NCBI GenBank assembly: GCA_050864255.1
Contig: JBOWAX010000005.1
Location: 27,906 to 91,905, forward strand
Origin: Dehalogenimonas sp.
GTDB taxonomy: Bacteria > Chloroflexota > Dehalococcoidia > Dehalococcoidales > Dehalococcoidaceae
Direction of reading: 5' to 3'
DNA length: 64,000 nucleotides
Shown: one piece after another, positions 31,830-58,372 of the stretch
Numbering within the stretch: position 1 is the stretch's first letter
How the letters are laid out: each line of letters starts with the position of its first letter
Program-made: the position numbers and the translations under genes
Notes under the pieces: generated by a model
Database searches by the model: none
What the model saw: the letters and a program-made list of their open reading frames with translations, nothing else
Told to the model about the DNA's origin: nothing

Positions 31830-32837
31830 ATGGCTGAAAAATGTAGCGGCGAAGCGCCCAACTATTGGACCGGAAAACGATGTCTGGTTACCGGGGGATA
31901 CGGCTTCGGTGGCGGACATCTTTGTGAGCAGTTGTTGGAAAAGGGAGCCCAGGTCTACGTTTATGATCGTGAAGCACCCGGTGATTCCTATCTGGCTCTT
32001 TCAGGACTGGTTGATCAGGTTGTCTACATACCGGGGGATACCCGGGACTTAGACCTGGTAAAAACTACCCTGGCGCGATTTGAAATCAATACTGTTTTTC
32101 ACTTAGCTGCCCAACCCATTGTTCCGGTATGTAATTCCTGTCCCTATGAATCCCTCTCAATAAACGTATTGGGCACGTACTCAGTCTTGGAAGCTGTCAG
32201 GACATGCGTGCCGTCCCCTGTGTTAATTTTTGCCTCCAGCGGCGCCTATTACGGGACAACATTTGAAAAGAACCCAATCCCGGAGGATTATCCACCGCAG
32301 GCAGCAGCCAATATATATGCCCCCTCCAAAGTCGCCGGAGACTTTGCTGTACGTTCTTATGCCAAAACTTATGGCCTAAAAGCGGCGGTTTGTCGCTTTA
32401 TCAATACTTACGGTCCCGGCAACCGGAACTCAAGTACCATCGTCCCAAAGGCTATCGGTAAACTAATTCGGGGGGAACCGTATGACTTCGGTGATCGGGA
32501 TGACGGCACGTCGGCTTTTGACTATCTAAATATCGGGGATATGACCCGGGGTTATCTGGCAGTCGGAGAGAATATTGCTCAAATATCCGGAGAGGCCTTC
32601 AATTTCGGCGGCGGATACCCCATTTCGGTTCATGATCTTGTCTGCCTCATTAGCCGTCTTTACGACGGGGTGGAGCGGGAACCCATATTTCACGGGCGGA
32701 AAAAGGAAAAACAGGTTCGTAAATGTTTGGATACCGGTAAGGCTCGCCAACAATTGGGTTGGCAGCCGAGCATAAGTTTGGAAGATGGGCTCAAGGAGAC
32801 AATAAGATGGTACAAAGAACACCAGAACTGTCTTTAA
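31830..32837 (+). CDS. NAD-dependent sugar-nucleotide 4,6-dehydratase/epimerase (CDP-glucose 4,6-dehydratase-like)
   Basis: YWTGKRCLVTGGYGFGGGHL resembles the N-terminus of CDP-glucose 4,6-dehydratases. The catalytic YAPSK is present. SD AGGGAGG precedes the start. Confidence 0.75.
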   Translation: MAEKCSGEAPNYWTGKRCLVTGGYGFGGGHLCEQLLEKGAQVYVYDREAPGDSYLALSGLVDQVVYIPGDTRDLDLVKTTLARFEINTVFHLAAQPIVPVCNSCPYESLSINVLGTYSVLEAVRTCVPSPVLIFASSGAYYGTTFEKNPIPEDYPPQAAANIYAPSKVAGDFAVRSYAKTYGLKAAVCRFINTYGPGNRNSSTIVPKAIGKLIRGEPYDFGDRDDGTSAFDYLNIGDMTRGYLAVGENIAQISGEAFNFGGGYPISVHDLVCLISRLYDGVEREPIFHGRKKEKQVRKCLDTGKARQQLGWQPSISLEDGLKETIRWYKEHQNCL

Positions 32838-34054
32838 AAACCGAGGCCTGGGGTGACGGGTTGGATATATTCAGAGTGCTGCATGATCCTGATTTAAGAC
32901 AGAAGGAATTTCCGATTACGGCCGCCAAAGTCTTTTTAGCTCATGCCGCGAGTTCCCCGCTTCCGTTTCGGGTTTCTGAGGCCATGGTTGATTACGTGCG
33001 ACGGGCTTCAACTGAGGGGCAGTGGGAATATATTAATCATCAGATAGAAGAAGAGACAAGGGACTTTGCGGCCTTACTTTTGGGGGCTGAGAAAGATGAA
33101 ATCGCATTGGTGGCTTCAACATCGGCTGGTTTGAATATCGTCGCTGCCGGATTGCCATGGCAATCCGGCGACAATGTGATTATCGCCGATGGTGATTTCC
33201 CGGCTAATGTGTACCCCTGGTTGAATTTGCAGGCGCTGGGTGTCCAGGTGAAGTTTATTCCCAGGACTGAGGACGGCTCTGTCACCCTCAAGAATATAAT
33301 ACCGCTGGTTGATCAGCGTACCCGTTTGGTGTCGTTATCAAGTGTTAATTATCTTACCGGATTTCAGATTGATGTCCCCGGTATTGGTGCTTATCTCAAG
33401 GGCCGTAATATCTTGTTTTGCGTTGATGCTATCCAGAGTGCAGGTATATTTCCGACTGATTTAAAGTATGTTGATTTCTTGGCTGCCGGGGCCAATAAGT
33501 GGTTGTTGGGGCCATTGGGTACGGGTATATTATTTGTAAGCAAGAAGAACTTTGACGTGCTATCCCCTAGTTGGGTCGGTTGGAAAAATGTCCGTTCATA
33601 TAACAACTATACAGCTTATGACCTTTGCTTCGTGGATTCGGCGAAGAAGTATGAACCGACGCCGATTTGTATTTCGGGGATGTTTGGCTTGCACAGTGCC
33701 CTTAAAATGATACTTGAGGTTCAAGTAACTGAAATCGCTGCCAGATTAGCCGATGTCCGGCATCGGCTGGTCTCAATCCTGAAAGAAAAGGGTTTTAATG
33801 TGCTTAATGGAGGTGATGAGCAGCGATACACCGGTATCACTTCTTTTACCTCACCCAAGATTGATATCGCAGGCATGAGGAATCAAATTGATGCCGATGG
33901 CTTTGTGGTTTCCCTCAGAGACGGGTTAACCTGCGGTAAATATATCAGAGTTGGGCCTCATTTTTACAATACCGATGATGAGATCCAGCGATTTTTGGAT
34001 AATCTGCCAACGTTGAGAAGACTTAGGAAATCCCATTATCGTAAGCTAAACTAG
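32807..34054 (+). CDS. Class V (fold-type I) PLP-dependent aminotransferase / desulfurase-like enzyme
   Basis: AAGANKWLLGPLGTGILF carries the PLP lysine context. The start at 32807 has SD AAGGAG and overlaps the dehydratase gene by 31 nt. Confidence 0.7.
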   Translation: MVQRTPELSLKTEAWGDGLDIFRVLHDPDLRQKEFPITAAKVFLAHAASSPLPFRVSEAMVDYVRRASTEGQWEYINHQIEEETRDFAALLLGAEKDEIALVASTSAGLNIVAAGLPWQSGDNVIIADGDFPANVYPWLNLQALGVQVKFIPRTEDGSVTLKNIIPLVDQRTRLVSLSSVNYLTGFQIDVPGIGAYLKGRNILFCVDAIQSAGIFPTDLKYVDFLAAGANKWLLGPLGTGILFVSKKNFDVLSPSWVGWKNVRSYNNYTAYDLCFVDSAKKYEPTPICISGMFGLHSALKMILEVQVTEIAARLADVRHRLVSILKEKGFNVLNGGDEQRYTGITSFTSPKIDIAGMRNQIDADGFVVSLRDGLTCGKYIRVGPHFYNTDDEIQRFLDNLPTLRRLRKSHYRKLN

Positions 34055-35175
34055 TCCATTTTACCGTGATTTTTCATTAGTGCGGCATATTGTTCAAACC
34101 ACTCAGGGAGTGAATGGTAAGCCGTCGTAATATAACAATACGCCAGGCCCTTGGACCAGGCATCAGCGGTTAGCGTGTAAGCTTCTTGGGGGGTTAGATT
34201 TTCATAGTGACCGGTAACGCTAATCCGATAGCCCCAATCTAGTTGGACTTGGGTGAGGTCCTGTCCCTTCCAATTTTCATTGGCGTGCATCAGGTCAAAA
34301 CCACCATTGGTAAAATACCAACTGTCAAAATCCGCAACACCTACATTCCCCCAGGTTATCAGACCGTAGCTATGGGCCAGATCGGTCAAGGCCTGCAGAT
34401 ATTTTTTTGACGCTGCATCCGGAAATGAACTGCATTCATCGATAAATATCCCTGTTACACCGTCATTTTCAGCCATATTTTTTATCAATCGGAGATTGGT
34501 TTCCAGACTGTACCATTGGGAAGGGATGGCGCCTGCTGATCCGAAACCTTCGTAGCCGGCGGTTATGTAGCCGATTACTTTAATGCCGGCTTCTTTGTAA
34601 CTATTGATATTTGGGAATATCTCTGGGCCTGAAAGTTCTCCCCAAAGGCCATGGGGAGTATTTCCGATAAAATATTCCGGGTTTATATTTAAAATACGGT
34701 TGTCAATGGTTGGGGTATGTTGGCCGTAGTACACAAGATTGATATTCAGTTCCTCTTCGTCCGGTGGTTTTATTGTATCGGGCATCTGTCTCACCTCAAT
34801 GTTAAAAGATTTAGTATCGGTGGTCTGACCGTCAGTAACGGTGACATTTATGTTGGCGTATAATCCGACCGCAGGCTGCAACCAGATGATTGATGGTCTG
34901 GAGCTGTCAAGTATCGCTCCTGCAGGCAGGTTGGTTGCTTCATATAAAAGGAGGTCTTCGTCAAGATCAGTTGCTTCTATACAAATTTCCAAACGAAAGC
35001 CGGCGGCGGCAATTCTATCCTGGATGGGGGAAAGGCTTGGCGGATGGTTTTCTGGTGAATCGGTGAGTGCCGCTGGTGCCATTTGAAACAATACTCCAAC
35101 AATGATCACCCCAGCCAAACCCAATAGATATTCTTTACGGGTTAGCCGTCGGATCCACAATAATACGCTATTCAA
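34051..35175 (-). CDS. Membrane-anchored cadherin-like Ig domain plus Sph3/spherulin-4-like (beta/alpha)8 putative glycoside hydrolase
   Basis: N-terminal TM, then an Ig-like module (EATDLDEDLLLYEATNLPAGA). Barrel motifs shared with the genes at 53367 and 55703 follow: LVYYGQH, GNTPHGLWG, GIKVIGYITAGY, GIFIDECSS. The start is uncertain (TTG). Confidence 0.55.
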   Translation of the reverse strand: MNSVLLWIRRLTRKEYLLGLAGVIIVGVLFQMAPAALTDSPENHPPSLSPIQDRIAAAGFRLEICIEATDLDEDLLLYEATNLPAGAILDSSRPSIIWLQPAVGLYANINVTVTDGQTTDTKSFNIEVRQMPDTIKPPDEEELNINLVYYGQHTPTIDNRILNINPEYFIGNTPHGLWGELSGPEIFPNINSYKEAGIKVIGYITAGYEGFGSAGAIPSQWYSLETNLRLIKNMAENDGVTGIFIDECSSFPDAASKKYLQALTDLAHSYGLITWGNVGVADFDSWYFTNGGFDLMHANENWKGQDLTQVQLDWGYRISVTGHYENLTPQEAYTLTADAWSKGLAYCYITTAYHSLPEWFEQYAALMKNHGKMD

Positions 35176-35510: not shown

Positions 35511-36914
35511 ATGCCACTGGAGAATAAATTAGTTGGCATGAGGGTATGTATTGTTTCCGAAGGGTCTTACCCCGTTACGCGAGGCGGGTTGAGCGAGTGG
35601 GCTCATATGTTGATTAAGTCACTCAGCAGTGTGCGTTTTGATGTCTTTTGTATTGTGCCTTATGACGAGCCTCAGGTGTCGGTCTACCCAAAATTGCCGA
35701 ATATTGACCGCGTGGTAATCAAACCCATATTACGGAGCCGACCTCATTTTTCTCCCAGAGAATTAGCTCCGAAAATCCGCCGTTCTTTGCCGGGGGTTAT
35801 TAGACAGATGACAGACGGAAAGGCAATGACTTTAACAAGTCTGACCGATTCGAAACAGCGATGTCCGGCAAGTAAAGCTTGGTTAGCTTCTGAATCGTAT
35901 TGGGATTGTGTAACCGGCATCTATAAGGATTCACATTCGGAAGAGTCGCTGACTGACTATTTTTGGTCGGTTTTTGGTTTCAATTCAATCTTGCTTGACA
36001 GCCTGAATTTTATCAATGAAATGCCCAGGGCGGATATATATCACTCTTTGAGTACCGGGTTCGCCGGTTATGCTTGCGCTATCGCCAAACTGACCAGAAA
36101 CAAGCCGATGGTGACCACCGAGCAAGGGTTGTATCTGGTTGAAAGACGGGCTGAATTGACCCAGAGTGATGTTTCTCCCCTTTATCGTGATTTGGGGTTC
36201 AAGTTTTCAGAATCCTTGGTTAGAACCTCCTATCAATATGCCGATAGGATTGTGCCGCCATGTTATATTCCGCACACCAAGATTGAAAAAGACTTGGGTG
36301 CTGACCCTATTAAAATCACGGTAATCAATAATGGTATTGAGGTAGAGCGTTTCACACCGGGGAATCGGACGGGCGAGAAGGTTGTAATCGGCTGTTTTGC
36401 CCGTGTCGTACCTATCAAAGGAATAACCGATTTGATCAAAGCGGCCAAAATAGTAACTCAGCGCTGCGATGCGGAATTTGTCGTATTAGGTGAGATTCAG
36501 GACAAGAATTATCATCAGAAGTGTCTGGATCTCATTGAAGAGCTTGGAATCTCCAAATCATTCAAAATTATGGGGCATGTCAGTGCCGAAGAATGGTACC
36601 GCAAGGTAGATATATTCACCTTGTCTTCAATTTCTGAAGGTGTTCCCTATGCTCTGTTGGAAGCCATGAGTTCGGAATTGCCTTCGGTTTGTACCGCTGT
36701 GGGTGGTGTGCCTGAGATTATGAGCGATGGTGTTGGCTTTGTAGTGCCTCCGGGTGAACCAGAGGCGCTGGCAGATAAGCTTTGCCTGTTGGTTGAGGAT
36801 AAGGAGTTACGCAAAAAATTAGGCAATCACGCGATTAATGTGGCCCATCAGAAGTACACCCTGACTGAAATGGCTGGGAAATTTCTTAAACTATATGAGG
36901 AATTGGCAGGATGA
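35511..36914 (+). CDS. PelF-like family 4 glycosyltransferase
   Basis: The N-terminus MRVCIVSEGSYPVTRGGLSEWAHML fits the PelF-type N-terminal domain. The GT4 C-terminal half carries SISEGVPYALLEAMSSELP. Confidence 0.75.
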   Translation: MPLENKLVGMRVCIVSEGSYPVTRGGLSEWAHMLIKSLSSVRFDVFCIVPYDEPQVSVYPKLPNIDRVVIKPILRSRPHFSPRELAPKIRRSLPGVIRQMTDGKAMTLTSLTDSKQRCPASKAWLASESYWDCVTGIYKDSHSEESLTDYFWSVFGFNSILLDSLNFINEMPRADIYHSLSTGFAGYACAIAKLTRNKPMVTTEQGLYLVERRAELTQSDVSPLYRDLGFKFSESLVRTSYQYADRIVPPCYIPHTKIEKDLGADPIKITVINNGIEVERFTPGNRTGEKVVIGCFARVVPIKGITDLIKAAKIVTQRCDAEFVVLGEIQDKNYHQKCLDLIEELGISKSFKIMGHVSAEEWYRKVDIFTLSSISEGVPYALLEAMSSELPSVCTAVGGVPEIMSDGVGFVVPPGEPEALADKLCLLVEDKELRKKLGNHAINVAHQKYTLTEMAGKFLKLYEELAG

Positions 36915-38290
36915 GAGGTGAAGGGGTGCCCATCACTACGGTCCTTCCCCCAAAGGCTAACAACCCTTCCATGACCCGTGCGGTTTTATTTATTACTCCG
37001 GCGCTGGTGGTTACAATTGTATCTGTGGTGTTGTTTTCCCTTCTGGATGGCTTGCCAGCCGCAGACTTCAATATTTTTTCGGTCACTATTCTGGCAGCAG
37101 TCATTATTAGTCTTCTGTCGGCGGCGGTCATCCAAATATTGATTTATCGGATAATTGAAGAAAATAAAACTTATCCGATTGAGGCTGCACGGAGAAGCGT
37201 TGGCCTCGGAATGAAATACAGTTTTGTTTCCTCATTAGTGGTTTCGGCGCTTATCTTCCCATATTTAACGCGGGTCGTGGGTCTGTCGGATCAGGATTTT
37301 CTGTTTTTTGCCGCCCTCCATTTCCTTTATTCAGGTGCCTGGGTGGTAATTTCGGTATACTGGGCGACCAAACATTATCTCTACCCCACCATTATTTTTA
37401 TCGTGGGTTATATGGTTGTATTTTTTGCAACCTATGGAATGTACCAGGTTTCCCCGGGCAACATCATTATCGGCTACACCGGAGGCATTGCGGTATTGCT
37501 GATTCTATCTTTGCTAAGTGTGTCATCGGCTTTCCCAAAGTCAAAGACGGGGAAGATTATTTCGAATGATCTTTCGCGGCTTCCTAAAATGGATAGCCCC
37601 ACCAGATGGGCCATTATGTTTAATACCACGTATATTCTGGCCATTTTTCTGGATAAGATTGTAATTTGGATATTTCAGGCCCAGGCAACCGGGGGCGGGC
37701 TTTTGATTTCCGGTACGTACACCCTCGCCTCTTTTCTGGGGTTGATTCCGATGTTGAGTATCGGAACTATCGCCTATTTCAATGACCGAACCAGTTTACT
37801 GGTGGAAAAGCGTTATCAAGGTACGCAAAGCCAGATCAAAGCCAGGATAAATGAGTATCGCCGAGCCTATTGGCGCAGCTTTATGGTAACGCTGTTGATT
37901 TCCCTGATCTTGGCGCTGGTTTTGATCTTTGTCGTGGTTTATTACTTTCCAGATTTCGGCTCAACCGCAGTCATTACTTCAGTGGCAATCGGGTCCTTCT
38001 TTCTTAGCGGTATTGTGTTTAACTCTGTGGTACTGCCGATATTCGGCCAGTCTAAATATTCAACATTGGCGGTGTTTATGGTAGTCATCGGGGTTCTTGC
38101 AGCTGTCCCGGTCATTAGCTCTGAAATCTGGTTTGCGGCTTTGGGCTTCATGACGGGTTGCATCATGGGATTTTTAATCAGCTTTATTAAAACAGCCAGT
38201 TGCCTGGGAAAATTTGAGTTCAATATGTTTCGTTTTATCTCCCAAAATACACTTAGAGAATTAAATCAAAAAAGGAGTTATCTATCATGA
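36911..38290 (+). CDS. PelG-like polytopic membrane protein (putative polysaccharide exporter)
   Basis: 459 aa with about 12 hydrophobic segments. It has ATGA overlaps with both the pelF-like gene and the next gene. Size and position match PelG. Confidence 0.6.
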   Translation: MRGEGVPITTVLPPKANNPSMTRAVLFITPALVVTIVSVVLFSLLDGLPAADFNIFSVTILAAVIISLLSAAVIQILIYRIIEENKTYPIEAARRSVGLGMKYSFVSSLVVSALIFPYLTRVVGLSDQDFLFFAALHFLYSGAWVVISVYWATKHYLYPTIIFIVGYMVVFFATYGMYQVSPGNIIIGYTGGIAVLLILSLLSVSSAFPKSKTGKIISNDLSRLPKMDSPTRWAIMFNTTYILAIFLDKIVIWIFQAQATGGGLLISGTYTLASFLGLIPMLSIGTIAYFNDRTSLLVEKRYQGTQSQIKARINEYRRAYWRSFMVTLLISLILALVLIFVVVYYFPDFGSTAVITSVAIGSFFLSGIVFNSVVLPIFGQSKYSTLAVFMVVIGVLAAVPVISSEIWFAALGFMTGCIMGFLISFIKTASCLGKFEFNMFRFISQNTLRELNQKRSYLS

Positions 38291-39258: not shown

Positions 39259-39966
39259 TTATTGTGGTTTGTTGTTGGATATAGTCTGGGGATTTTTGTT
39301 ATCCAAGGATGTGGCAATAGCCGGGCTTGTGCCCCGTTCTATGGCATAACGCAGAAGTTCACTCTGGTTAGCGAACCCCAGTTTTTGCATGACATTGGCT
39401 CGGTGAGAGTCAACCGTCCGAACACTGATAAAAAGCCTCTTGGCTATCTCTGTTCTGGATAACCCCTGGGCGGTCAAGAATAGCGTCTGTCTTTCTCGGG
39501 AGCTGAGTCGTTCGTAAGGGTCATCCTGTGCCTTTCGTGAAGCTTCCCGCATATAACCATTGAAGGCCAGTTCTGAAAGGCTTTTGCTGAGATAGTGCCT
39601 TCCCTGGGTCACCTCATTGATGGCCTCAAAAAGGTCGGTGGATAAAGCGTCCTTGAGGACATATCCTAATACCCCGCTACGCAATGCACTTTGCACATAG
39701 TTTTCATTATTGTGCATTGTTAAAATAATGACTGCGGTTCCTAAACGTTGTTTGATGACCTCTTGTCCCAATTCAATGCCGGAAATATCAGGCAGAATCA
39801 GATCTGTGATTAAAACGTTTGGGCGTAACTTCCGGGCTAGAATAAGTGACTCGTTACCGGTTCCGGACTCACCGACAATTTTGAACATTGGCTCTGATTC
39901 CAGCATGCAGCGCAACGCGGCCCGCACCAAATGATGATCATCACATAATTGGATAGTAATACTCAT
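39259..39966 (-). CDS. NarL/LuxR-family response regulator
   Basis: ITIQLCDDHH, NVLITDLILPDISG (canonical Asp), and a LuxR HTH (LSSRERQTLFLTAQGLSRTEIA). Confidence 0.88.
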   Translation of the reverse strand: MSITIQLCDDHHLVRAALRCMLESEPMFKIVGESGTGNESLILARKLRPNVLITDLILPDISGIELGQEVIKQRLGTAVIILTMHNNENYVQSALRSGVLGYVLKDALSTDLFEAINEVTQGRHYLSKSLSELAFNGYMREASRKAQDDPYERLSSRERQTLFLTAQGLSRTEIAKRLFISVRTVDSHRANVMQKLGFANQSELLRYAIERGTSPAIATSLDNKNPQTISNNKPQ

Positions 39967-40312
39967 AAGTTCTACCTATGCATGCAAAATGACATTAACA
40001 TCCTTAGTCCACAATACAACTAATCTATCCGAAATTCAAGCCCATTTTTACATTATTTTCACTACCAATTGTTAGACATGTTGGTTTTTCTACGTACTTT
40101 ACAGGTCTAACATAGGTGCCGGGGGTCTGGTTACGTATGGTAAGGTCTGAATAATTACGTAAATCCTTGCAGACATATAGGTAATTTGCGGATTTTGCGG
40201 ATGGAGCAGGCTGAGTATCATGGGTCGTAGTGTGAAATAGGTGAACGCTGGTGTTTGACCTTTTCGCCAAGAATTTAAAAATCTGGTAATGAATCGAACT
40301 GGAGTTGATGAG

Positions 40313-44680: not shown

Positions 44681-44719
44681 CAACAACGGTTTATCTGAAT
44701 AGACGAAGTGAGGTTTAAA

Positions 44720-50036: not shown

Positions 50037-50729
50037 TCATTCCGTGTTTTGAAACAGGCCTCGTTGGCGAGCCAGTTCAATAAGCTGTTGCTGGAAGTTT
50101 TGCAAACCCAGCTTACGCATCATGTTTGCCCGATGGAGCTCAACGGTGCGCCGGCTAATGGACAATTTTTCAGCAATCGCTTCATTGTTAAGCCCATGCA
50201 CTACATACTCGAAAATTTCAAACTCACGATGGGTTAATGTTTGCACGATGTCACCATTAGAAAAGCCAGAAAGAGGATAATCAACCGGTAGCCTTGATGG
50301 CCTATCAGCCTCTATGTACTTGCGGCTGTCAGCTACATCGTGTACCACCTTAATTAATTTTGCCTCAATATCATTCCAATAAATCACTGATTTAGCTCCG
50401 GAACGCAATGCTTCCTCAGTGGTGAAATTGCCGGTACGGGATAGTACAATGCAAGCTACCTGGGGGTATTTTTTGTGGATTAGACGTACAATCTCAAGAT
50501 CTAAGTTTCCACCAACAGTATAGACCAGTATATCCGGGTTGGTTGCAGCCAGCCTGGCGATGGCTTTTAAGTTATTTCCGGTTTCGCCCTTTACAAAAAA
50601 ATCATCATCGGATTCGAGAAATGCGCGAATATACTGTCTTGATTCAAAGTTTTCATCCGCCAGGACTATAGAAATTTGTCGCACGAGATTCGTTCCCTTC
50701 TCAAAAGCTGGAATCCCTGATGCTTTCAT
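50037..50729 (-). CDS. LuxR-type regulator with a degenerate (pseudo-)receiver domain
   Basis: LuxR HTH LTHREFEIFEYVVHGLNNEAIA. The receiver-like N-terminus reads PDILVYTVGGN where the phospho-acceptor Asp is expected, and it lacks the conserved Lys. The ATG overlaps the glmS stop (ATGA). An alternative GTG start lies at 50684. Confidence 0.8.
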   Translation of the reverse strand: MKASGIPAFEKGTNLVRQISIVLADENFESRQYIRAFLESDDDFFVKGETGNNLKAIARLAATNPDILVYTVGGNLDLEIVRLIHKKYPQVACIVLSRTGNFTTEEALRSGAKSVIYWNDIEAKLIKVVHDVADSRKYIEADRPSRLPVDYPLSGFSNGDIVQTLTHREFEIFEYVVHGLNNEAIAEKLSISRRTVELHRANMMRKLGLQNFQQQLIELARQRGLFQNTE

Positions 50730-52498
50730 TCCACGGTTACGCTCTTAGCCAGATTTCGTGGATGGTCTATAGCGCAACCACGGATTTTAGCTATGTGGTA
50801 AGCCAATAATTGTAATGGTATGGTATTGATAATTGGGGATAATAAAGTATTTGTGTGGGGCACCCGAATCACTACATCGGCCACTCCGTCAATCCCGTCT
50901 ACGTCACTGGCAGCGATGGCGATGACGTAGGCTTTTCGCGCTCTAGCCTCGATAATACTGGTAATCATTGAATCGTAATTGGCATCAGCGATTACCATCG
51001 CCACCACCGGCATTCCTTCATGTATTAGTGCCAACGGGCCGTGCTTAAGTTCGCCAGCCGCATAACCTTCCGCATGTATATAGGATACTTCCTTAAGTTT
51101 AAGAGCTCCTTCAAGTGCTACCGGATAGTTGATGCCTCGTCCGATAAAAAAGGCACTTTCAAAATTCGCCATATATTTTGCGATTTCAACGATCTCTGGT
51201 TCAATCTTGAAAACCTGCAGAACTTTATCCGGTAACATACCTAATTCTAAGCTTAGGCTCGTTCTAAGTTCCTCGGGAATTGTTGGTTGAGCCAGCACTA
51301 TTTGGCATAAGGCGATTAACTGTCCAGTGAAGCTTTTTGTAGCTGCGACACTGAACTCAGTTCCGGCTTTGATATAGACTGTCCGATCAGCCAGTCGGTT
51401 TGCGGTGCTACCCGGTACGTTGGTAACGGCCATAACCTTAATGCCACCGATTTTCAGTGCCCTCATTGCATATAGGACGTCGGCAGTTTCGCCCGATTGG
51501 GTTAGAACCAGGGCCTCATCAGGGAAGAGAACACGGCGATGGTTGAATTCGGAGCCTAGTGTCACTCTGGTTACGATCCCAAGCAACTCCTCAATGATAT
51601 ATGCGCCAATCAGACCCGCATGATAAGAAGTGCCACAGGCGACAATGGACAAGTCATGGGCACCATCGAAAAATGCAAGGTTTTGATCAAATGAGGCATT
51701 TTCCTGAATAGTATTCAAGATTACTTTTGGCTGTTCATGGATTTCTTTGAGCATAAAATGTTCATATCCGCATTTGTCGCTATCATCCCGGCACCAGTCG
51801 ACCAGTTGTTCTTCTCGTATACACTCAACGCCGTTATTCCTGATGATAATATTGTCACAGGTGATAGTACCAACGTCGCCATTTTCAAGGTAAATGGCAT
51901 TATTGCAATAGTTGATAATAGCCGGCATATCAGAGGCAACGAATTTTTCACCCTTGCCGTTGCCGATGACTAACGGGCTGTCCTTGCGGGCAACTATCAC
52001 CATGCCGGCGTCCAGGTGGCTGATGACAGCTATGGCATATGACCCTTCAAGAACCGCAACGGCTTGCGCAACCGCAGAACTCAGATCATCAACATAATAT
52101 TTTTCAATAAGATGAGAAATTACTTCAGTATCTGTATCGGAGATGAAATGATGTCCTTCGGCAGTCAGTTGTTGTTTAATTTTGGCATAATTTGAAATGA
52201 CGCCGTTGTGTACTACGGCGATTCGGCCACTACAGTCCAAATGGGGATGTGCGTTTACTTTAGTTGGGTGGCCGTGAGTTGCCCAACGTGAATGTCCAAT
52301 GCCCGTTGTTCCGGTAAGGGTGGGAGATGATTCTTTAAGAGCGGATACCCTGCCACTTTCTTTATATACCTTTAAACCGGTGTCATGTTCAACAGCGATT
52401 CCACAAGAATCGTAGCCTCGATATTCTAAACGCGTCAGGCAGTCGAACAAAACTCCGCTTGCTTGCTTGGGGCCAACATATCCTACGATACCACACAT
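50726..52498 (-). CDS. glmS: Glutamine--fructose-6-phosphate aminotransferase
   Basis: MCGIVGYVG (N-terminal nucleophile Cys), two SIS domains and the C-terminal KSVTVE. SD GAGGAG precedes the start. Confidence 0.96.
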   Translation of the reverse strand: MCGIVGYVGPKQASGVLFDCLTRLEYRGYDSCGIAVEHDTGLKVYKESGRVSALKESSPTLTGTTGIGHSRWATHGHPTKVNAHPHLDCSGRIAVVHNGVISNYAKIKQQLTAEGHHFISDTDTEVISHLIEKYYVDDLSSAVAQAVAVLEGSYAIAVISHLDAGMVIVARKDSPLVIGNGKGEKFVASDMPAIINYCNNAIYLENGDVGTITCDNIIIRNNGVECIREEQLVDWCRDDSDKCGYEHFMLKEIHEQPKVILNTIQENASFDQNLAFFDGAHDLSIVACGTSYHAGLIGAYIIEELLGIVTRVTLGSEFNHRRVLFPDEALVLTQSGETADVLYAMRALKIGGIKVMAVTNVPGSTANRLADRTVYIKAGTEFSVAATKSFTGQLIALCQIVLAQPTIPEELRTSLSLELGMLPDKVLQVFKIEPEIVEIAKYMANFESAFFIGRGINYPVALEGALKLKEVSYIHAEGYAAGELKHGPLALIHEGMPVVAMVIADANYDSMITSIIEARARKAYVIAIAASDVDGIDGVADVVIRVPHTNTLLSPIINTIPLQLLAYHIAKIRGCAIDHPRNLAKSVTVE

Positions 52499-52829
52499 TA
52501 CGACTGCTCCTCATTCATGTAACTCTATTATAAAGAGTAAACTGGAGGTCAACATCGGTAAGATTGCCCTGTGTTCCAAGAACTAATACGTATTTATCAA
52601 TTAGGGAATTTGAATATCGTAAGTAGTTACCTACAAAGTAAGAAAGAATCGTGGTTGGAGTTTTTGGTATTGTGGAAAGTTACTCTTTTATGAGGCCTTA
52701 AGGCTGATTGGATGCCAGGGATTTTCAAGAATGCCTGGGATTGGATTTGAGCGTGATATATAGGTGACGGAAAGGAAGAAGATACTGGAGGATTGGTTCG
52801 CATGAGTGAATGGCTATTCTAATGTGAGA

Positions 52830-53000
52830 TTAATGGCCGGTGGATATCCTGTCAAACAGGTAGTAAACGGCATTCCAAAGGGCGCAGGTTGACCAGGCTG
52901 AAAGGTACCAGATATATCGGTCGGTAAGGCCTTTATGGTTGAAGTACATAGTCAGTATCTGTTTGGTGCTCAGGCCTTTGTCTTTAATCATATAGCTCAT
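52830..53000 (-). CDS. Possible 56-aa W/Y-rich small protein
   Basis: ATG at 53000, 3 nt after the stop of the DUF1508-like gene. Translation: MSYMIKDKGLSTKQILTMYFNHKGLTDRYIWYLSAWSTCALWNAVYYLFDRISTGH. It is below the ORF-track cut-off and I recognise no family. Confidence 0.25.
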   Translation of the reverse strand: MSYMIKDKGLSTKQILTMYFNHKGLTDRYIWYLSAWSTCALWNAVYYLFDRISTGH

Positions 53001-53003
53001 CAC

Positions 53004-53246
53004 TTAACCTGCGTAATGGCCGTAATCGGGGTTTGATGAAAGTTGACTGGCTTTGGCGTAGATAGCATCAAAATGGTAGCTCCTTCTACTGATAGCGATT
53101 ATCTCTTCAGCGGATCTCATTCCAAGTAATACCTCACTCTTGGTGTCGTACGATTCGGATATGCCGATAATTGTGCCGTTTGTGGCAATAAGGGCGAACC
53201 TGAAATCACCGGGTTTGTCTGTGTATAACTGGAACTTGGCTTTCAT
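53004..53246 (-). CDS. YegP/DUF1508-like small protein
   Basis: FQLYTDKPGDFRFALIATNGTIIGISESYDTKSE matches the YegP repeat pattern. Confidence 0.65.
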   Translation of the reverse strand: MKAKFQLYTDKPGDFRFALIATNGTIIGISESYDTKSEVLLGMRSAEEIIAISRRSYHFDAIYAKASQLSSNPDYGHYAG

Positions 53247-53366
53247 GATTTACTCCTATATTAACTTCGTTCTAATCTTGTTTGGTTGATGCTGCCGCCT
53301 TGATTGTTGTGGTCTGTTCAAAGGCGGCAGCATCAGGCGCTTTAGTCTTTCATTTGATAACGGTGT

Positions 53367-55427
53367 TTACTTAACCGCTTTTAGTGTCCACCAACCGAGT
53401 GTTTTGTCCAGGTCGCCAGTAACCGTTGATCCAACGATTAACAGATTGGGAAAGTCTGTCTTGCTTGCGGCGACCCAAACCGTATCAGTTACTTTCAATC
53501 CGGTTATAGTAGTTGTGGTTATTTTGATGGACAGGTTGTATTCGTTACTGCCGCCACTGCTTATCGGAACACTGGCTACCACGGCTGTGGTATTGCCTTT
53601 GATGACGACAGGCACCGGAGGGGTAACGGGGGTTGTTTGAATTGAGGACTTCATGACCCACCAACCGAGAGAGTTATCCAGGTTGCCGGTAAGGGTTGAG
53701 CCTACGGTCAGCAAATTAGGAAAGTCCGTTGTTGATGCCGCTACCCAAAGGTTCTGGCCGATGGTGAGTCCGAAAACTGTGGTTGTCGTTATTCTGATGG
53801 ACAGGTTATATTCGTTACTGCCGCCACTGCTAACTGGCACACTGGCGATCACGCCGGTAGTGTTACCAATTGAAGGGGGCGGAGCCATAGCGTTGACGAC
53901 GATAGAGATAGTTTCCGAATCCGTCAGCTTACCGTCGCTGACGGTGAAGCTTACGTTATATGTTCCTGTCTGAGTCGGCGTCCATGAGAAACGAGCGTTT
54001 GAGAAGCTGGCTCCAGACGGAAGGTTTGAGGCGGAGAAGCTCAATGCGTTGCCGTCGGCGTCAGTGGCGCTTAGAACGAATTCCAAGTTTTGTCCGACTG
54101 TGACAGCTTTATTGCCAATGGGATTCAACACCGGAGCCCGGTTTGGATAGGTGACGACGATAGAGATAGTTTCCGAATCCGTCAGCTTACCGTCGCTGAC
54201 GGTGAAGCTTACGTTATATGTTCCTGTCTGAGTCGGCGTCCATGAGAAACGAGCGTTTGAGAAGCTGGCTCCAGACGGAAGGTTTGAGGCGGAGAAGCTC
54301 AATGCGTTGCCGTCGGCGTCAGTGGCGCTTAGAACGAATTCCAAGTTTTGTCCGACTGTGACAGCTTTATTGCCAATGGGATTCAACACCGGTGCTCGGT
54401 TAATGGTAGTTGTTGGAGTAGCAGCCTTCATGATCCACCAACCGAAAGAGTTATCCAGATTGCCGGTAAGGGTTGAGCCTACGGTCAGCAAATTAGGAAA
54501 GTCCGTTGTTGATGCCGCTACCCAAAGGTTCTGGCCGATGGTGAGTCCGGAAACAGTGGTTGTGGTTATTCTGATGGACAGGTTATATTCGTTACTGCCG
54601 CCACTGCTAACTGGTACACTGGCTACCACGCCGGTTACATTGCCTGAGGATGGGACGGGAGTCGGTGTGGGCGTTGGAGAAGGAGTCGTGGTTGAAGCTG
54701 AAAGCAATAGAACATACTCTTCAAGCCATGAAGGTAAGCTATTGTATTCTAGCTGCTCATGCCAACTGTAGGCGAAGCCATTCGACCAGGCCGCGTTGGT
54801 GTAGCTTGCTGCCTGGGCCGCAGTCCAATTCCCAAACCCAATTACAATTGTCTGATCCAAGTGTGTGGCCTCAACTGCGGTCGGGGCGCGTCCCACATAG
54901 TGTTCGTCGGTCATCACATAATCAGCCACCGTGTAGACATCAGCGCTGACATAGGGCATTCCGGGGTTGATGATGACACTTAATCCTTTACTTTTGGCAT
55001 AGTTGTAGATGTTTTGGTTGTAGGCAGTTGCACTGGAAGAGGCTTGGTCCATGAAGATACCGAAGCTTCCTTCTTTTGCAATGGCGTCGATGAGTGCATA
55101 GTTATCCCCGATTGGACGAGCCCCGTAAGAGGAATCTATGTAGCTGAAAACTTTGATACCCTGGCTTTGGAAAAGAGCAACATTGGCGTTACCGTGCCAG
55201 TAGCCTGCCGGGGTATTGTCGATCAGGATTTCGGGTGCTGCATTGATGATTCTTTGATCGACCGCAGAATCGTGCCATCCATAGTAGACTAGAGCAAGAG
55301 GACGGGTTGCAGTGGCTGCAGCCACCGGCTGCACCATGGGGAGTACCCCCAGGGTAACTACCAGCAGTGGTAGTATTGTGGCAAGTAAGAGGTGCTTTCT
55401 TTTAAGCAACGATGTTAGAATTTTCAT
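53367..55427 (-). CDS. Secreted Sph3/spherulin-4-like putative glycoside hydrolase with three 'GWW' modules and two cadherin-like modules
   Basis: Signal peptide. Barrel motifs LVYYGWH, DNTPAGYWHG, GIKVFSYIDSSY and GIFMDQASS. A TP-rich linker follows, then the order GWW, Cad, Cad, GWW, GWW. Confidence 0.8.
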   Translation of the reverse strand: MKILTSLLKRKHLLLATILPLLVVTLGVLPMVQPVAAATATRPLALVYYGWHDSAVDQRIINAAPEILIDNTPAGYWHGNANVALFQSQGIKVFSYIDSSYGARPIGDNYALIDAIAKEGSFGIFMDQASSSATAYNQNIYNYAKSKGLSVIINPGMPYVSADVYTVADYVMTDEHYVGRAPTAVEATHLDQTIVIGFGNWTAAQAASYTNAAWSNGFAYSWHEQLEYNSLPSWLEEYVLLLSASTTTPSPTPTPTPVPSSGNVTGVVASVPVSSGGSNEYNLSIRITTTTVSGLTIGQNLWVAASTTDFPNLLTVGSTLTGNLDNSFGWWIMKAATPTTTINRAPVLNPIGNKAVTVGQNLEFVLSATDADGNALSFSASNLPSGASFSNARFSWTPTQTGTYNVSFTVSDGKLTDSETISIVVTYPNRAPVLNPIGNKAVTVGQNLEFVLSATDADGNALSFSASNLPSGASFSNARFSWTPTQTGTYNVSFTVSDGKLTDSETISIVVNAMAPPPSIGNTTGVIASVPVSSGGSNEYNLSIRITTTTVFGLTIGQNLWVAASTTDFPNLLTVGSTLTGNLDNSLGWWVMKSSIQTTPVTPPVPVVIKGNTTAVVASVPISSGGSNEYNLSIKITTTTITGLKVTDTVWVAASKTDFPNLLIVGSTVTGDLDKTLGWWTLKAVK
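53895..54392. repeat. Two apparently identical 240-bp copies (258-bp period) encoding the cadherin-like modules
   Basis: Copies at 53895-54134 and 54153-54392 are identical by eye. Flanking segments 53652-53860 and 54429-54637 are near-identical, offset by 777 bp. Confidence 0.85.
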
Positions 55428-55702: not shown

Positions 55703-56995
55703 CTATGGTGCTTTTAGTGTCCACCAGCCGAGGGATTTATCAAGATTACCTGATACCGTATAACCAATGGTATGTAAATTGGGGAAGTCGATTGTAGTTG
55801 CCGCAACCCAAACGACCTGTCCAACCGTAAGGCCTGAAACTGTTGTCGTCGTAATCCTGATGGAGAAACTGAATTCATTACTTCCTCCGCTGGGGGTTGG
55901 AGCACTGGCTATCACAGCGGTTATATTACCATATGAAAGGACAGGAGTCGTGGGGTTTTTGAGCACCCACCAGCCATATGAATTATCCATGTTGCCGGTA
56001 ATGGTGGAGCCAATTGTTCTCAATGAGGGAAAGTCAGTCGTTGTTGCTGCAATCCAGACTGTTTGACCAGCCGTCAAACCAGCATTCGCAGATGTCATAA
56101 TCCTGACGGACAGACTGTACTCGTTGCTTGCCCCTGTGGGTATAGGGACACTTGTTACCATAGCAGTGGTATTGCCCAAAGAAGAATATGAAGGAGTATA
56201 CGATGGTGTTGGTGCCGGAGCGGACGGTGTGTAGGGTGAAATCAAACTGACGTAACTGGGTAGCCAGTAAGCCAGGCTGGCATAGGCCGGTGTGACATAG
56301 GCGGCTAACACACCTTTGCTCCAGGCGCCCTGGGTCAGGTTTGCAGCAGTGGTAGCATCGTACACACCCTCACGCAATAGCCATGTCCGGCTAGCCCATT
56401 TTTGCTGACTGGCTGTTAATGAAGCATTGGACCACTGTTCAGAGCTGTTGATATAGTCGCAGTAGGTCATTAATTGGTCAGACCAGCTATTCTGCCCGGT
56501 ATTGAAAACAATCTTGAGACCTAGGCTGCGTGCTTTTGCTGATATTTGTTGCAGATAGCTCCAGTTAGGTGTAGTCCATATCCCTTCACTTACCTGGTCC
56601 AGGAAGATACCATAAGCGCCTGCAGCGGCAGCTGCGGTTATGTAGTTGAGGTTGGATTGTAGGTCAACGGGGATACCTCCCCGGCGTGTTCCCTCGTAGC
56701 CGCCGTCGATATATTCAAAATACTTGATACCGGCGGCTGTAAACTTGCTTATATTGGCGTTACCACGCCATGGTCCAGCCGGGCTGTTACTTACCAGGAA
56801 GGTTGGATTGGCATTAATAATAGCTGCTTCGGTAGCGGGGGAATGCCAACCGTAGTAGATCATGTTGATGCTAACCGTGGTGGCCGCACTCAGTTTATTA
56901 GTGGTAGCTGGTATGCCCAGTGTAGCCAAACTCAGAATTAACGATATGCCGATAATGATTAGTCGATTTAAATATTTGCGTAATTGCAAACTCAT
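55703..56995 (-). CDS. Secreted Sph3/spherulin-4-like putative glycoside hydrolase with two 'GWW' modules
   Basis: Signal peptide. Barrel motifs MIYYGWH, SNSPAGPWRG, GIKYFEYIDGGY and GIFLDQVSE. Two C-terminal modules end in GWWVLK and GWWTLK. Confidence 0.8.
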   Translation of the reverse strand: MSLQLRKYLNRLIIIGISLILSLATLGIPATTNKLSAATTVSINMIYYGWHSPATEAAIINANPTFLVSNSPAGPWRGNANISKFTAAGIKYFEYIDGGYEGTRRGGIPVDLQSNLNYITAAAAAGAYGIFLDQVSEGIWTTPNWSYLQQISAKARSLGLKIVFNTGQNSWSDQLMTYCDYINSSEQWSNASLTASQQKWASRTWLLREGVYDATTAANLTQGAWSKGVLAAYVTPAYASLAYWLPSYVSLISPYTPSAPAPTPSYTPSYSSLGNTTAMVTSVPIPTGASNEYSLSVRIMTSANAGLTAGQTVWIAATTTDFPSLRTIGSTITGNMDNSYGWWVLKNPTTPVLSYGNITAVIASAPTPSGGSNEFSFSIRITTTTVSGLTVGQVVWVAATTIDFPNLHTIGYTVSGNLDKSLGWWTLKAP

Positions 56996-57451
56996 CCTTT
57001 TCTCCTTTTATTGTTATTGTTTATTCAATTATTCGGTATATACCGGTAATATTAAGTATATTGAAAAAGGCTTGCCAACAGGATAACAAATAATATCCGT
57101 CAAGCCTTGAAAAAATGGAAAAGCTGAGTTTTTATGTGATCGGCGCTTTCTTAAATTTCATCAATTTGGTTTTTCGATTCTTAGTCAAGGTACGTATATT
57201 TTGCGGGGAGTTTATCATCCGGCAATTGAACTGTAAATACGTAAATACTAGAAAAATGGGTAAAAATACTCGGTGGAATTGGGCAAAACCACTAACAGCG
57301 CATGATTTGAACAGAGAGAACAAAACGTAATATATAAACTGATTTTGATTACTAAGTATATCTATCCAGCTTAATACGTAAAATTACTGATGGTGATGTA
57401 TTCGGGAATTGCTATAATGAGTTTGGTAGACGAAGAGACTAGGGGCAAGAA

Positions 57452-58372
57452 ATGAAAATATTAGTTACCGGTGGCGCCGGCTTTATAGGTTCACACCTAG
57501 TTGATAAATTGCTGGCAAATGGGGACGATGTTGTGGTCATTGATAATTTAACTTCAGGAAAAAAAAGCAATGTTGATCCCAGAGTTAGAATTTATGAAAT
57601 GGATATCCGTGCCCCAGATTTAAAAGATTTGATGACAAAGGAAAAGCCCAGACTTGTGTACCATTTAGCGGCTCAAACCACTGTCAGTAAATCGGTAGTT
57701 GACCCTGTGATGGATAATCAAATCAATGTTTCAGGCAGTCTTAACGTCATCACTAGTTGTGTCGAGGCAGGAGTCGAAAAGTTAGTCTATGCTTCATCAT
57801 CTGCCGCATACGGGCATCCTGACAATTTGCCAGTAACTGAAACCCATATTGCACGGCCTCTGTCACCATACGGTGTTTCTAAACACACCGTAGAGCATTA
57901 TCTTGAAATCTACCACAAATTGTTTGACCTGTCTTATACGATTTTGAGATATGCCAATGTCTATGGGCCGAGGCAAAATCCGGCTGGGGAAGGTGGTGTC
58001 GTGGCAATTTTTGCTGACAGAATGCTCAACGACAAGAATCCGGTTATTTTCGGTGACGGGAGCAAAACCCGGGATTATATATATGTTAGTGATATTGTGG
58101 CTGCCAATTTATTGGCGGCAAAACAGGAGTCATGTGATGTTTTTAATATCGGCACGGGCCGTAAAACGTCTGATGATACCATATTTGATCTATTAGCCCG
58201 GTCATGCCGGTACCAAGGAATTAAGGGATATGCACCGGAGCGTCTTGGTGATATTAAACATATGTATCTTGATTGTACTAAAGCGCAACATCATCTTAAA
58301 TGGTTGCCTGAGACCAGCTTGGAAACCGGCATTGACTTGACGGTAGCGTATTATAGTGGCACATCCGCTTAA
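57452..58372 (+). CDS. UDP-hexose 4-epimerase (GalE family)
   Basis: MKILVTGGAGFIGSHLV, the catalytic YGVSK, and 306 aa. Confidence 0.85.
   Translation: MKILVTGGAGFIGSHLVDKLLANGDDVVVIDNLTSGKKSNVDPRVRIYEMDIRAPDLKDLMTKEKPRLVYHLAAQTTVSKSVVDPVMDNQINVSGSLNVITSCVEAGVEKLVYASSSAAYGHPDNLPVTETHIARPLSPYGVSKHTVEHYLEIYHKLFDLSYTILRYANVYGPRQNPAGEGGVVAIFADRMLNDKNPVIFGDGSKTRDYIYVSDIVAANLLAAKQESCDVFNIGTGRKTSDDTIFDLLARSCRYQGIKGYAPERLGDIKHMYLDCTKAQHHLKWLPETSLETGIDLTVAYYSGTSA

Follow-up and report, generated by a model that had tools for sequence, protein, structure and literature searches.

Gene content of the locus

The subject of this study is a putative Pel-type polysaccharide locus in a stretch of 64,000 nucleotides (hereafter the window) from a metagenome-assembled genome (MAG) of Dehalogenimonas sp. 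(assembly GCA_050864255.1, contig JBOWAX010000005.1, positions 27,906 to 91,905; NCBI proteins MGI2336696-714). The window covers 64 kb of a 134,670-bp contig, and its region from 29.4 to 58.4 kb holds 17 genes, distributed over both strands, among them an adjacent pelF-pelG pair. Judged from sequence, the locus as a whole is quite probably a Pel-type system of the monoderm ('Gram-positive') kind for the synthase-dependent production of an exopolysaccharide, in a Dehalogenimonas without peptidoglycan. The Prokaryotic Genome Annotation Pipeline (PGAP) already labels PelG; two giant proteins and three barrel proteins described below are 'hypothetical' or 'Ig-like' there. The Pfam scan covered all open reading frames (ORFs) of the window of at least ~230 amino acids (aa), except those lying antisense inside another gene.

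PelF, PelG and a coupled dehydratase-like protein

The core of the locus consists of three co-directional genes:

35511-36914, forward strand: PelF, predicted cytoplasmic GT4 polymerase of 467 aa with a DUF3492 N-terminal domain followed by GT4
36911-38290, forward strand: PelG, exporter of the MOP superfamily, 459 aa; ATGA overlap with the PelF stop codon
38287-39111, forward strand: short-chain dehydrogenase/reductase (SDR) of the PseB/CapD/PglF family, 274 aa, putative UDP-N-acetylglucosamine (UDP-GlcNAc) 4,6-dehydratase; ATGA overlap with the PelG stop codon

The first product matched DUF3492 with an E value of 2.4e-49 over profile positions 1-267 of 268, followed by a Pfam Glycos_transf_1 match, and scored 201 bits against the NCBIfam PelF equivalog (cut-off 100). 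For the second, which contains about 12 hydrophobic segments, Pfam PelG was the sole family match (57.6 bits, cut-off 29, positions 34-452 of 452), and the identical protein MGI2336702.1 bears the PGAP name 'exopolysaccharide Pel transporter PelG'. A Wzx/MATE reading of the 459-aa protein was rejected, as no match to Wzx, MATE or MurJ was obtained. The profile checks thus returned neither a generic GT4 for the first protein nor a Wzx/MATE flippase for the second. Both ATGA overlaps (36911-36914 and 38287-38290) were read straight from the sequence. The PelF-type N-terminus, the PelG-sized protein with about 12 membrane segments, the translational coupling and the CapD/PseB-like protein behind PelG, all proposed in an initial annotation of this DNA, are hence confirmed. 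Neither PelF nor PelG carries an extra domain in Pfam or NCBIfam that could replace PelD or PelE.

The third product scored 221 bits against Polysacc_synt_2 and 182 bits against PseB (TIGR03589), which is under the cut-off of 408 and covers positions 5-266 of 324, the last ~55 positions being missing. Its closest PDB relatives are FlaA1/PseB, CapE, CapD and PglF (E 3e-37 to 1e-29), with FlaA1 (2GN4, E 3e-37) as the top match. The STDK and YGATK (YxxxK) motifs are retained, and in length the protein falls about 50 residues short of dehydratases that have been characterised. An N-terminal SDR domain is fused to many Gram-positive PelD proteins, and the CapD-like SDR might be its counterpart.

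A predicted Pel-type deacetylase module in two giant surface proteins

Two large genes lie downstream of the core:

40289-44680, forward strand: giant 1, 1463 aa, assigned by DUF2194 and the family profile
46563-49922, forward strand: giant 2, 1119 aa, assigned by paralogy to giant 1 and the family profile

The two giants are paralogues, as had been noted before, with ~750 aa in common at 45% identity; within this common part lies a PelA_DA-like domain of ~650 aa. In giant 1, an N-terminal membrane helix is followed by the PelA_DA-like module (CBM114-like plus CE26, ~aa 45-650), an fn3-like domain, CarboxypepD_reg, Ig, MBG and three YDG adhesin-type domains. Giant 2 starts with a signal or anchor segment and continues with fn3-like domains, the PelA_DA-like module (~aa 390-1010) and a C-terminal membrane anchor. 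Pfam detected DUF2194 in giant 1 (36.6 bits, cut-off 30.4), the label which Gram-positive PelA carries in that database (PMC7890745). A Fusobacterium DUF2194 protein also matched giant 2 (E 3.6e-7 by blastp, 4.5e-4 by phmmer).

A single-sequence search of the PDB with the N-terminal 704 aa of a giant gave no match, and a profile was needed. Both paralogues of the window and five homologues from databases went into profile A1, which represents the shared domain. At E<=1 its sole PDB match was 9ZAU (E 3.7e-13, chain residues 85-509, corresponding to B. cereus ~110-534), which is PelA_DA of Bacillus cereus, an extracellular Pel de-N-acetylase and the founder of the families CBM114 and CE26 (PMC13254593). 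Residues were mapped from the printed alignment, in which the chain index plus 25 gives the B. cereus numbering:

B. cereus D262/D263: giant 1 D274/D275, giant 2 D613/D614
B. cereus H350/H354: giant 1 H346/H351, giant 2 H685/H690
B. cereus P405: giant 1 A405 (proline lost), giant 2 P739
B. cereus R458: giant 1 R472, giant 2 R796
B. cereus H488: giant 1 H511, giant 2 H835
B. cereus D491: giant 1 E514, giant 2 D838

The D-D pair, the two histidines of the H...H motif, the arginine and the last histidine are thus conserved in both giants, and the corresponding D-D, H, R and H residues were shown to be necessary in B. cereus PelA_DA (PMC13254593). Giant 1 has one hydrophobic helix immediately ahead of its module; the N-terminal helix of the B. 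cereus protein has been modelled against PelG (PMC13254593).

Readings of the module as CE18/Agd3 (6NWZ) or CE4 (PgaB, IcaB, PgdA) were rejected, since none of these was retrieved from the PDB by profile A1 at E<=1, and Polysacc_deac_1 had no Pfam match in the giants. On sequence similarity, the predicted deacetylase module is of the bacterial Pel type (CE26) and is neither Agd3/CE18 nor PgaB-like. The CE4/PgaB-like metal motifs which the initial annotation had seen in the giants therefore have to be given up, as does its statement that the locus lacks every other Pel component: as PelA_DA homologues, the giants hold two copies of the Gram-positive PelA deacetylase module.

Spherulin4-type barrel proteins

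Three further genes encode extracellular-type proteins built on a common barrel:

34051-35175, reverse strand: Sph-like protein 1, with an N-terminal membrane or signal segment, a He_PIG Ig domain and a Spherulin4-type (beta/alpha)8 barrel (candidate D246/E300)
53367-55427, reverse strand: Sph-like protein 2, 686 aa, with a signal or anchor segment, a Spherulin4-type barrel (candidate D127/E175), two Big_9/PKD modules and three ~80-aa repeats
55703-56995, reverse strand: Sph-like protein 3, with a signal or anchor segment, a Spherulin4-type barrel (candidate D133/E186) and two ~80-aa repeats

Over the barrel the proteins are mutually 33-43% identical (E 3e-27 to 1e-70), which bears out their proposed paralogy. 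Sph-like protein 1 matched Spherulin4 (PF12138) with E 8.3e-7 and 29.2 bits, just under the cut-off of 30.2, and the other two had no direct Spherulin4 match in Pfam. Among 25 homologues of the barrel family, 22 matched PF12138 (best E 1.2e-9) and five matched GH114 weakly (best E 4.6e-5); no protein of the window matched GH114 (PF03537). An AlphaFold2 (AF2) model of the barrel of Sph-like protein 3 reached a predicted local distance difference test score (pLDDT) of 91.5 and displays eight beta-alpha units.

As for the giants, a single-sequence PDB search with the barrel gave no match and a profile was needed. Profile A5 represents the broadened barrel family, for which 350 representatives at E<=0.001 were gathered in an exhaustive search by profile. 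It matched Sph3 in the PDB (5C5G/5D6T) with E 0.0068, through the GIFxDE and NxG strands. In hhalign it aligned with a Streptomyces protein that is encoded in a pelF locus and is a clear Spherulin4 member (119 bits to PF12138), with a probability of 90.8% and E 1.2e-6. The Asp of GIFxD and the Glu of an SSE motif are invariant in the aligned family and lie 48-54 residues apart in the three paralogues. In the endo-alpha-1,4-(N-acetyl)galactosaminidase families GH114, GH135, GH166 and GH191, an Asp nucleophile and a Glu acid/base are found ~55 residues apart (PMC12054363), and the candidate pairs of the three barrels correspond to these residues. With weak to moderate support, the barrels are assigned to the Spherulin4 (Sph3/GH135) superfamily as putative enzymes.

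The ~80-aa C-terminal repeat (consensus GNTTAVVASVP..SGGSNEY.LSI.ITTT..GL..G...WVAA.T.DFP.L...GST.TG.LD.S.GWW.LK) had no Pfam match. Its three copies in Sph-like protein 2 and two in Sph-like protein 3 lie at 53367-~54400 and 55703-~56190 on the reverse strand, and it occurs in four of the related loci introduced below (L004, L013, L017, L018) too; a role as a novel module for surface anchoring or glycan binding is conceivable. At 53894-54401, an in-frame tandem duplication of 258 bp (two copies, 99% identical) doubles one Big_9/PKD module of Sph-like protein 2 and looks recent.

Precursor and sugar-modifying enzymes

Five genes of the region encode enzymes that could act on sugar precursors or stand next to such genes:

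29434-30777, reverse strand: GlmM-like phosphoglucosamine mutase of the archaeal type (PGM_PMM domains I-IV)
50726-52498, reverse strand: GlmS, glutamine-fructose-6-phosphate transaminase (TIGR01135, 723 bits, cut-off 418)
57452-58372, forward strand: GalE/PelX-like UDP-hexose 4-epimerase (Epimerase, 217 bits)
31830-32837, forward strand: SDR1, an extended SDR of the epimerase/reductase type (Epimerase and GDP_Man_Dehyd matches)
32759-34054, forward strand: class-V (SufS-like) pyridoxal phosphate (PLP) enzyme (Aminotran_5; far under all NCBIfam cut-offs)

The glmS, mutase and epimerase genes proposed earlier are present. The mutase is named phosphoglucosamine mutase by PGAP and scored 420 bits against Arch_GlmM (TIGR03990), just under the cut-off of 439. 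The best PDB match of the epimerase was GalE of T. maritima (4ZRM, E 8e-89), and PelX (6WJB) was matched with E 3.5e-49. The GlmU step is not encoded within the window, and an Rfam scan of the window found no glmS ribozyme, its sole RNA being one tRNA.

SDR1 had been described as a second 4,6-dehydratase-like SDR. An extended SDR is indeed encoded, but it has YAPSK without the dehydratase-type TDE motif and lies under every NCBIfam cut-off; SDR1 may be a 4-keto reductase or an epimerase acting on a UDP-sugar. At 32759-34054, where translation probably begins only at the ATG at 32807, the supposed aminotransferase turned out to be a PLP enzyme of class V (SufS-like) and not a sugar aminotransferase of the DegT type. 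In two relatives (L011 and L013) it is reduced to a remnant of ~94 aa. Its membership in the pathway is doubtful, and we do not count it as a pathway part.

Dehalogenimonas and Dehalococcoides have been reported to be without peptidoglycan, the pathway having been lost in the ancestor of Dehalococcoidales (PMC10284905). In the window, mraZ, rsmH (MraW), ftsA and ftsZ are contiguous at 3105-7050 on the reverse strand, and no mur, ftsW or ftsI gene lies inside this block, which fits that loss and agrees with the host as first described. Because the host is without peptidoglycan, the genes for N-acetylhexosamine (HexNAc) supply are not needed for murein.

Embedded regulators

Three regulators of the NarL type lie within the locus, as proposed at the outset:

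30846-31595, reverse strand: NarL-type response regulator (Response_reg plus GerE), divergent from SDR1
39259-39966, reverse strand: NarL-type response regulator (Response_reg plus GerE), convergent with the pelFG-capD operon
50037-50729, reverse strand: atypical NarL-family regulator without the phospho-acceptor Asp, coupled to glmS by an ATGA overlap of its start with the stop codon of glmS

The second is 47% identical to the first. The third reads VYTV--GG where LITDL is expected; the phospho-acceptor Asp is also absent from its orthologue in L004 and is kept in the glmS-coupled regulator of L005, the glmS-regulator pair being conserved in both of these loci. An orthologue of the first regulator lies beside SDR1 in L008 and L011-L013 as well. 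From these genes we infer that control of the locus is most likely transcriptional, via the embedded NarL-type regulators.

Upstream, at 25144-29283 on the reverse strand, a 974-aa CheB-CheR-PAS fusion adjoins a PAS/HisKA_3 kinase. A CheB-CheR-PAS and kinase pair also lies beside the PelA_DA paralogues of L004 (2537-7083), so the pair may take part in regulating the locus.

Conservation in related loci

Related loci (numbered with the prefix L) were collected from a genome scan, contig look-ups, a metagenome scan with the PelG alignment (32 loci) and a tblastn map. The arrangement recurs in more than 30 independent metagenomic or MAG loci; it is not a chance grouping of genes. The survey of relatives that had been called for found PelF-PelG-CapD-like, GalE-like, Sph-like and SDR1 genes and NarL-type regulators conserved among about 35 loci, often with PelA_DA immediately 5' of PelF.

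Two types of loci were distinguished. Type A loci (PelG 36-44% identical to that of the window) contain, in this order, an Sph-like gene on the reverse strand, PelF-PelG-CapD-like, a GalE-like gene on the reverse strand, an Sph-like gene, SDR1, a NarL-type regulator and a HisKA_3 kinase. Type B loci (PelG 29-34% identical) contain, again in order, a giant TIG-repeat surface protein, PelF-PelG, a small helix-turn-helix (HTH) protein and an Sph-like gene. PelF orthologues (42-58% identity) lie immediately 5' of PelG. The CapD-like gene follows PelG in 18 related loci (56-74% identity) and is, together with SDR1 (70-72% identical in L008 and L011-L013), the most conserved of the set. Behind CapD, and in the reverse orientation to it, come GalE-like orthologues (52-57% identity). 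An Sph-like gene is present in at least 24 of the 32 PelG loci, across the two divergent types, and orthologues of Sph-like protein 1 are found at the flanks of pelFG in most relatives.

In L005/L006, L016 and L021, PelA_DA-PelF-PelG-CapD form one co-directional block that opens with PelA_DA right before PelF. In L021 the block is itself preceded immediately by a glmS homologue (38% identical); in L016, the CapD-like gene is followed by a GlmM homologue and then a GlmU-like nucleotidyl/acetyl-transferase. L004 repeats part of the window order, with CheB-CheR-PAS, kinase, two PelA_DA paralogues, a GerE regulator and glmS.

A scan of genome contigs with PelF returned three loci. One of them (L003) is unrelated (24% identity). 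Another, L002, is a 2-kb contig labelled 'uncultured Pirellulales' (CAZIAN010000807.1) whose PelF is 54% identical to that of the window; its bin label is probably wrong, as the closest relatives are Dehalococcoidia. A tblastn search of plasmids with PelG gave no match. In L011, a GH42-like/DUF5597 protein (11226-12782) lies between the CapD-like and GalE-like genes.

Search for further Pel components

Among the Pfam-scanned ORFs of the window, no PelD_GGDEF, GGDEF, membrane-GAF or TPR-membrane/PelE-like architecture was found. The called genes and ORFs of L004-L006, L011, L013, L016, L019, L021 and L025 likewise held nothing PelD- or PelE-like. The 870-bp gap at 52498-53367, between glmS and an Sph-like gene, contains only small ORFs, and neither of the two longest resembles a PelE-type membrane protein; one of them, of 80 aa (53004-53246, reverse strand), looks like a small protein of the YegP/DUF1508 type. 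When the PelD-like and PelE-like proteins of a Fusobacterium DUF2194-pelF-pelG locus were compared by phmmer with the 478 window ORFs of at least 50 aa, none matched at E<=10, in a search that is insensitive, since Fusobacterium PelG also missed the window PelG.

PelB (TPR plus porin), the PelC lipoprotein and a bifunctional PelA (GH166 plus CE21) had no Pfam match in the window and are not expected in a monoderm. The lack of recognisable PelD, PelE, PelB and PelC reported earlier is thus upheld for the Pfam-scanned ORFs. Wzx, Wzy, a polysaccharide co-polymerase (PCP) and an initiating phosphoglycosyltransferase were not detected in the window either.

Comparison with known Pel and galactosaminogalactan systems

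Compared with known systems, the locus comes out as a variant of Gram-positive Pel in whose vicinity no PelD/PelE control module is recognisable. The Gram-positive comparator is pelDEA_DAFG of B. cereus ATCC 10987 with accessory PelA_H (GH166) and GalE (PMC7112168, PMC13254593). Both systems combine PelF (DUF3492 plus GT4) and PelG with a membrane-anchored extracellular PelA_DA (DUF2194; CBM114 plus CE26) with matching catalytic residues, a flanking divergent GalE-type epimerase, a flanking glycoside hydrolase and a monoderm envelope without PelB/PelC. Unlike in B. cereus, however, there is no PelD/PelE in the Dehalogenimonas window and hence no c-di-GMP (cyclic diguanylate) receptor there. 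PelA_DA is duplicated, sits in proteins of 1100-1460 aa with fn3, Ig, MBG and YDG domains and has an HxxxxH motif, and three Spherulin4-type (GH135-like) barrels stand in place of the GH166 hydrolase. Further differences are the PseB/CapD-like SDR translationally coupled to PelG, the embedded glmS, glmM and NarL-type regulators, and the host without peptidoglycan.

With pelABCDEFG of Pseudomonas aeruginosa the locus shares the PelF-PelG core and the logic of polymerising, exporting, partly de-N-acetylating and hydrolysing a chain, whereas PelB/PelC export, the bifunctional PelA (GH166 plus CE21), PelD and PelE are missing from the window. Some pel loci are accompanied by PelX-like epimerases (bioRxiv 10.1101/2020.05.26.111013).

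The initial annotation had likened the tailoring enzymes to those of the fungal galactosaminogalactan cluster (Uge3, Gtb3, Agd3, Sph3, Ega3). A 4-epimerase, a Spherulin4/Sph3-family barrel with an Asp/Glu pair and an extracellular metal-dependent de-N-acetylase are indeed shared features. Yet the locus has PelF/PelG and not Gtb3, its predicted deacetylases are CE26 and not CE18 (Agd3), and no GH114 (Ega3) is found in the window, so that only the Sph3-family barrels are left of a specifically fungal-like set. A plasmid of Streptomyces californicus (NZ_CP070243, 140699-160093; L039) carries a co-directional series of a 715-aa hypothetical protein, pelF, a 468-aa hypothetical protein, an SDR, a nucleotidyltransferase, an SDR, Spherulin4 (119 bits) and GH114 (290 bits). 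The 468-aa protein is PelG-sized and has no Pfam match, and the 715-aa protein upstream is without DUF2194. This operon resembles the window in its pelF, PelG-sized protein, SDRs and Spherulin4 and, by annotation only, in having no PelD/PelE; its first SDR is most similar to SDR1 (E 3e-42). It differs in its GH114 and nucleotidyltransferase, its strong Spherulin4 match and a PelF that is only 28% identical. The occurrence of PelF, Spherulin4 and GH114 on a Streptomyces plasmid means that the combination is bacterial and not unique to Dehalogenimonas. The idea of a bacterial-fungal hybrid was thus overstated; PelF with Sph3/Ega3-type hydrolases is a bacterial theme. In the literature searched, we found no Pel in Dehalococcoidia or Chloroflexota and no Spherulin4 in Dehalococcoidia.

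Proposed pathway

In a pathway that would accommodate these proteins, fructose-6-phosphate would be converted via glucosamine-6-phosphate and glucosamine-1-phosphate to UDP-GlcNAc by GlmS, the GlmM-like mutase and a GlmU from outside the window, and the GalE/PelX-like epimerase would turn UDP-GlcNAc into UDP-N-acetylgalactosamine (UDP-GalNAc). PelF would polymerise an alpha-linked HexNAc chain, which PelG would export. Partial de-N-acetylation by giant 1, with its N-terminal helix next to PelG, and by giant 2 would yield a cationic, adhesive polymer. The Ig, YDG and MBG domains of the giants could hold this polymer at the surface layer (S-layer); enzymes or polymer would probably be tethered to the S-layer by the adhesin-type domains in the giants together with the ~80-aa repeats found in the barrel proteins, and the Sph-like enzymes might cut or remodel the polymer. 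The CapD-like dehydratase and SDR1 may add or substitute a 6-deoxy-HexNAc, e.g., N-acetylfucosamine (FucNAc) or N-acetylquinovosamine (QuiNAc); the two genes suggest that such a sugar is also made. It is the polymer chemistry, the independence of PelD/PelE and the role in the envelope that we infer.

Several observations weigh against the assignment as a Pel system or against parts of it. Neither P. aeruginosa nor B. cereus, in which c-di-GMP gates synthesis, can make Pel without PelD and PelE, and the search described above recovered neither of these two proteins in the window. PelA_DA lies outside the sequenced flanks of many Type A loci and of every Type B locus. The PelA_DA pair of L004 (10001-14736; JGI 3300037657 contig Ga0401392_0000005) is catalytically degenerate, with DD replaced by NA or EG and HxxxxH by NxxxxQ or YxxxxH, and these two proteins are probably pseudo-enzymes or binding proteins. 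The MT2 metal motif reads HxxxxH instead of HxxxH throughout the clade, and the MT3 proline is replaced by Ala in giant 1. For the PelA_DA module, AF2 modelling on an alignment of seven sequences reached a pLDDT of 49, too low for the model to enter a fold search. Foldseek of the barrel model against the PDB returned only generic TIM (triosephosphate isomerase) barrels among its top 50 matches (TM, i.e., template modelling score, ~0.5) and no Sph3, Ega3 or PelA_H, so that membership in GH135 by structure is putative. From the earlier designation of the barrels as Sph3/spherulin-4-like, the superfamily assignment by profiles and the eight-fold AF2 barrel stand, whereas the fold comparison does not support it. 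Finally, the substrate specificity of PelF is not readable from sequence.

In its most far-reaching form, the Pel-type reading would describe a pared-down Pel machinery that works without PelD, PelE or c-di-GMP, consisting of PelA_DA, PelF, PelG and the PelG-coupled PseB/CapD-like SDR under NarL control, in Dehalococcoidia and perhaps in other Terrabacteria such as Streptomyces, with a cationic, possibly 6-deoxy-HexNAc-containing structural surface layer of peptidoglycan-less cells as its product. We regard this extended proposal as rather doubtful.

Alternative explanations

The alternative that survives best retains the machinery and changes the product: UDP-6-deoxy-HexNAc made by the CapD-like protein and SDR1 would be (co-)polymerised by PelF, so that a 'deoxy-Pel' and not GalNAc-Pel would result. 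The overlap of the CapD-like gene with pelG, the kept STDK and YxxxK motifs and its likeness to PseB, FlaA1, CapE and PglF speak for such a product, as do its position after PelG in 18 loci and its conservation, with that of SDR1, of up to 74% identity; two SDRs and a nucleotidyltransferase also occur in the Streptomyces pelF locus. However, the CapD-like protein is ~50 residues short of characterised dehydratases and under the PseB cut-off, the GalE/PelX-like epimerase is equally conserved, and Type B loci consist of PelF-PelG-Sph without CapD. In addition, PelA_DA and Sph3-family enzymes are known only for GalNAc/galactosamine (GalN) polymers (PMC13254593, PMC12054363). We regard a deoxy sugar product as possible, though less likely than not.

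It appears unlikely that the locus is an ordinary Gram-positive pelDEA_DAFG system with pelD and pelE elsewhere in the genome or too divergent for detection, in which case nothing would be mechanistically new. PelE and PelD are the most divergent Pel proteins, single-sequence searches are insensitive, as the window PelG that escaped Fusobacterium PelG illustrates, and our view was limited to 64 kb of the 134.7-kb contig. Against this stand the lack of any PelD/PelE-type match in the Pfam-scanned window ORFs and in nine relative loci, the tight PelA_DA-PelF-PelG-CapD block in L005, L016 and L021, which leaves no space for further genes, and the location of pelD and pelE within the operon in characterised systems.

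We consider it very unlikely that only pelF-pelG-capD form a polysaccharide operon and that giants, barrels, glmS and glmM are unrelated adhesins and housekeeping genes. The genes do lie on both strands in several transcription units, consensus scans of the window for promoters and terminators stayed at chance level, so that no operons were defined by them, and PelA_DA is missing from the flanks of many relatives. Nevertheless, in L005/L006, L016 and L021 the gene right before PelF encodes PelA_DA, PelFG comes with Sph-like genes in at least 24 loci belonging to two divergent types, L016 and L021 add glmS or glmM to the block, and the DUF2194 family is a dedicated Pel enzyme wherever studied.

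Glycosylation of the S-layer or other surface proteins without a free polymer, which the S-layered, murein-free host and the PseB/PglF-type dehydratases typical of protein-glycosylation pathways might suggest, is the least probable explanation, since no oligosaccharyltransferase, initiating phosphoglycosyltransferase or Wzx/Wzy was found in the window and PelF/PelG, PelA_DA and the endo-galactosaminidase-type barrels indicate a long homopolymer.

Other features of the window

44708-46309, forward strand: surface protein located between both giants, anchored in the membrane at its C-terminus and carrying InlB B-repeat (Flg_new_2) domains in five copies

Outside the locus, a type IV pilus cluster at 8821-18207 (reverse strand) encodes a PilT-like ATPase, a PilM/N fusion, two prepilins, PilC and PilB. 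Its 798-aa PilB-like ATPase has a weak N-terminal match to Mrr_cat (restriction endonuclease-like), and the GC content falls to 0.41 at 12-14 kb within the cluster. The gene at 20414-21607 (reverse strand) encodes a strongly charged protein of 397 aa with tandem KEAEIQAKLEKQRLEKEAREQAEADKRAQ-type repeats, for which neither a Pfam match nor a hydrophobic segment was found.

Implications

Pel is among the best-studied biofilm polysaccharides, and a natural, conserved family of loci that retains PelF, PelG and PelA_DA without PelD/PelE near the core provides a concrete test case for which parts make up the minimal synthase. That a dehydratase-like SDR is so closely coupled to PelG points to a possibly different chemistry of the sugars. 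If the Pel-type assignment is true, uncharacterised bacterial GH135-like barrels and giant adhesin-fused CE26 deacetylases would be linked to Pel. For the organism itself, the locus hints at what a peptidoglycan-less, S-layered, organohalide-respiring lineage may display at its surface, which would be of relevance for aggregation and biofilm formation in bioremediation consortia.

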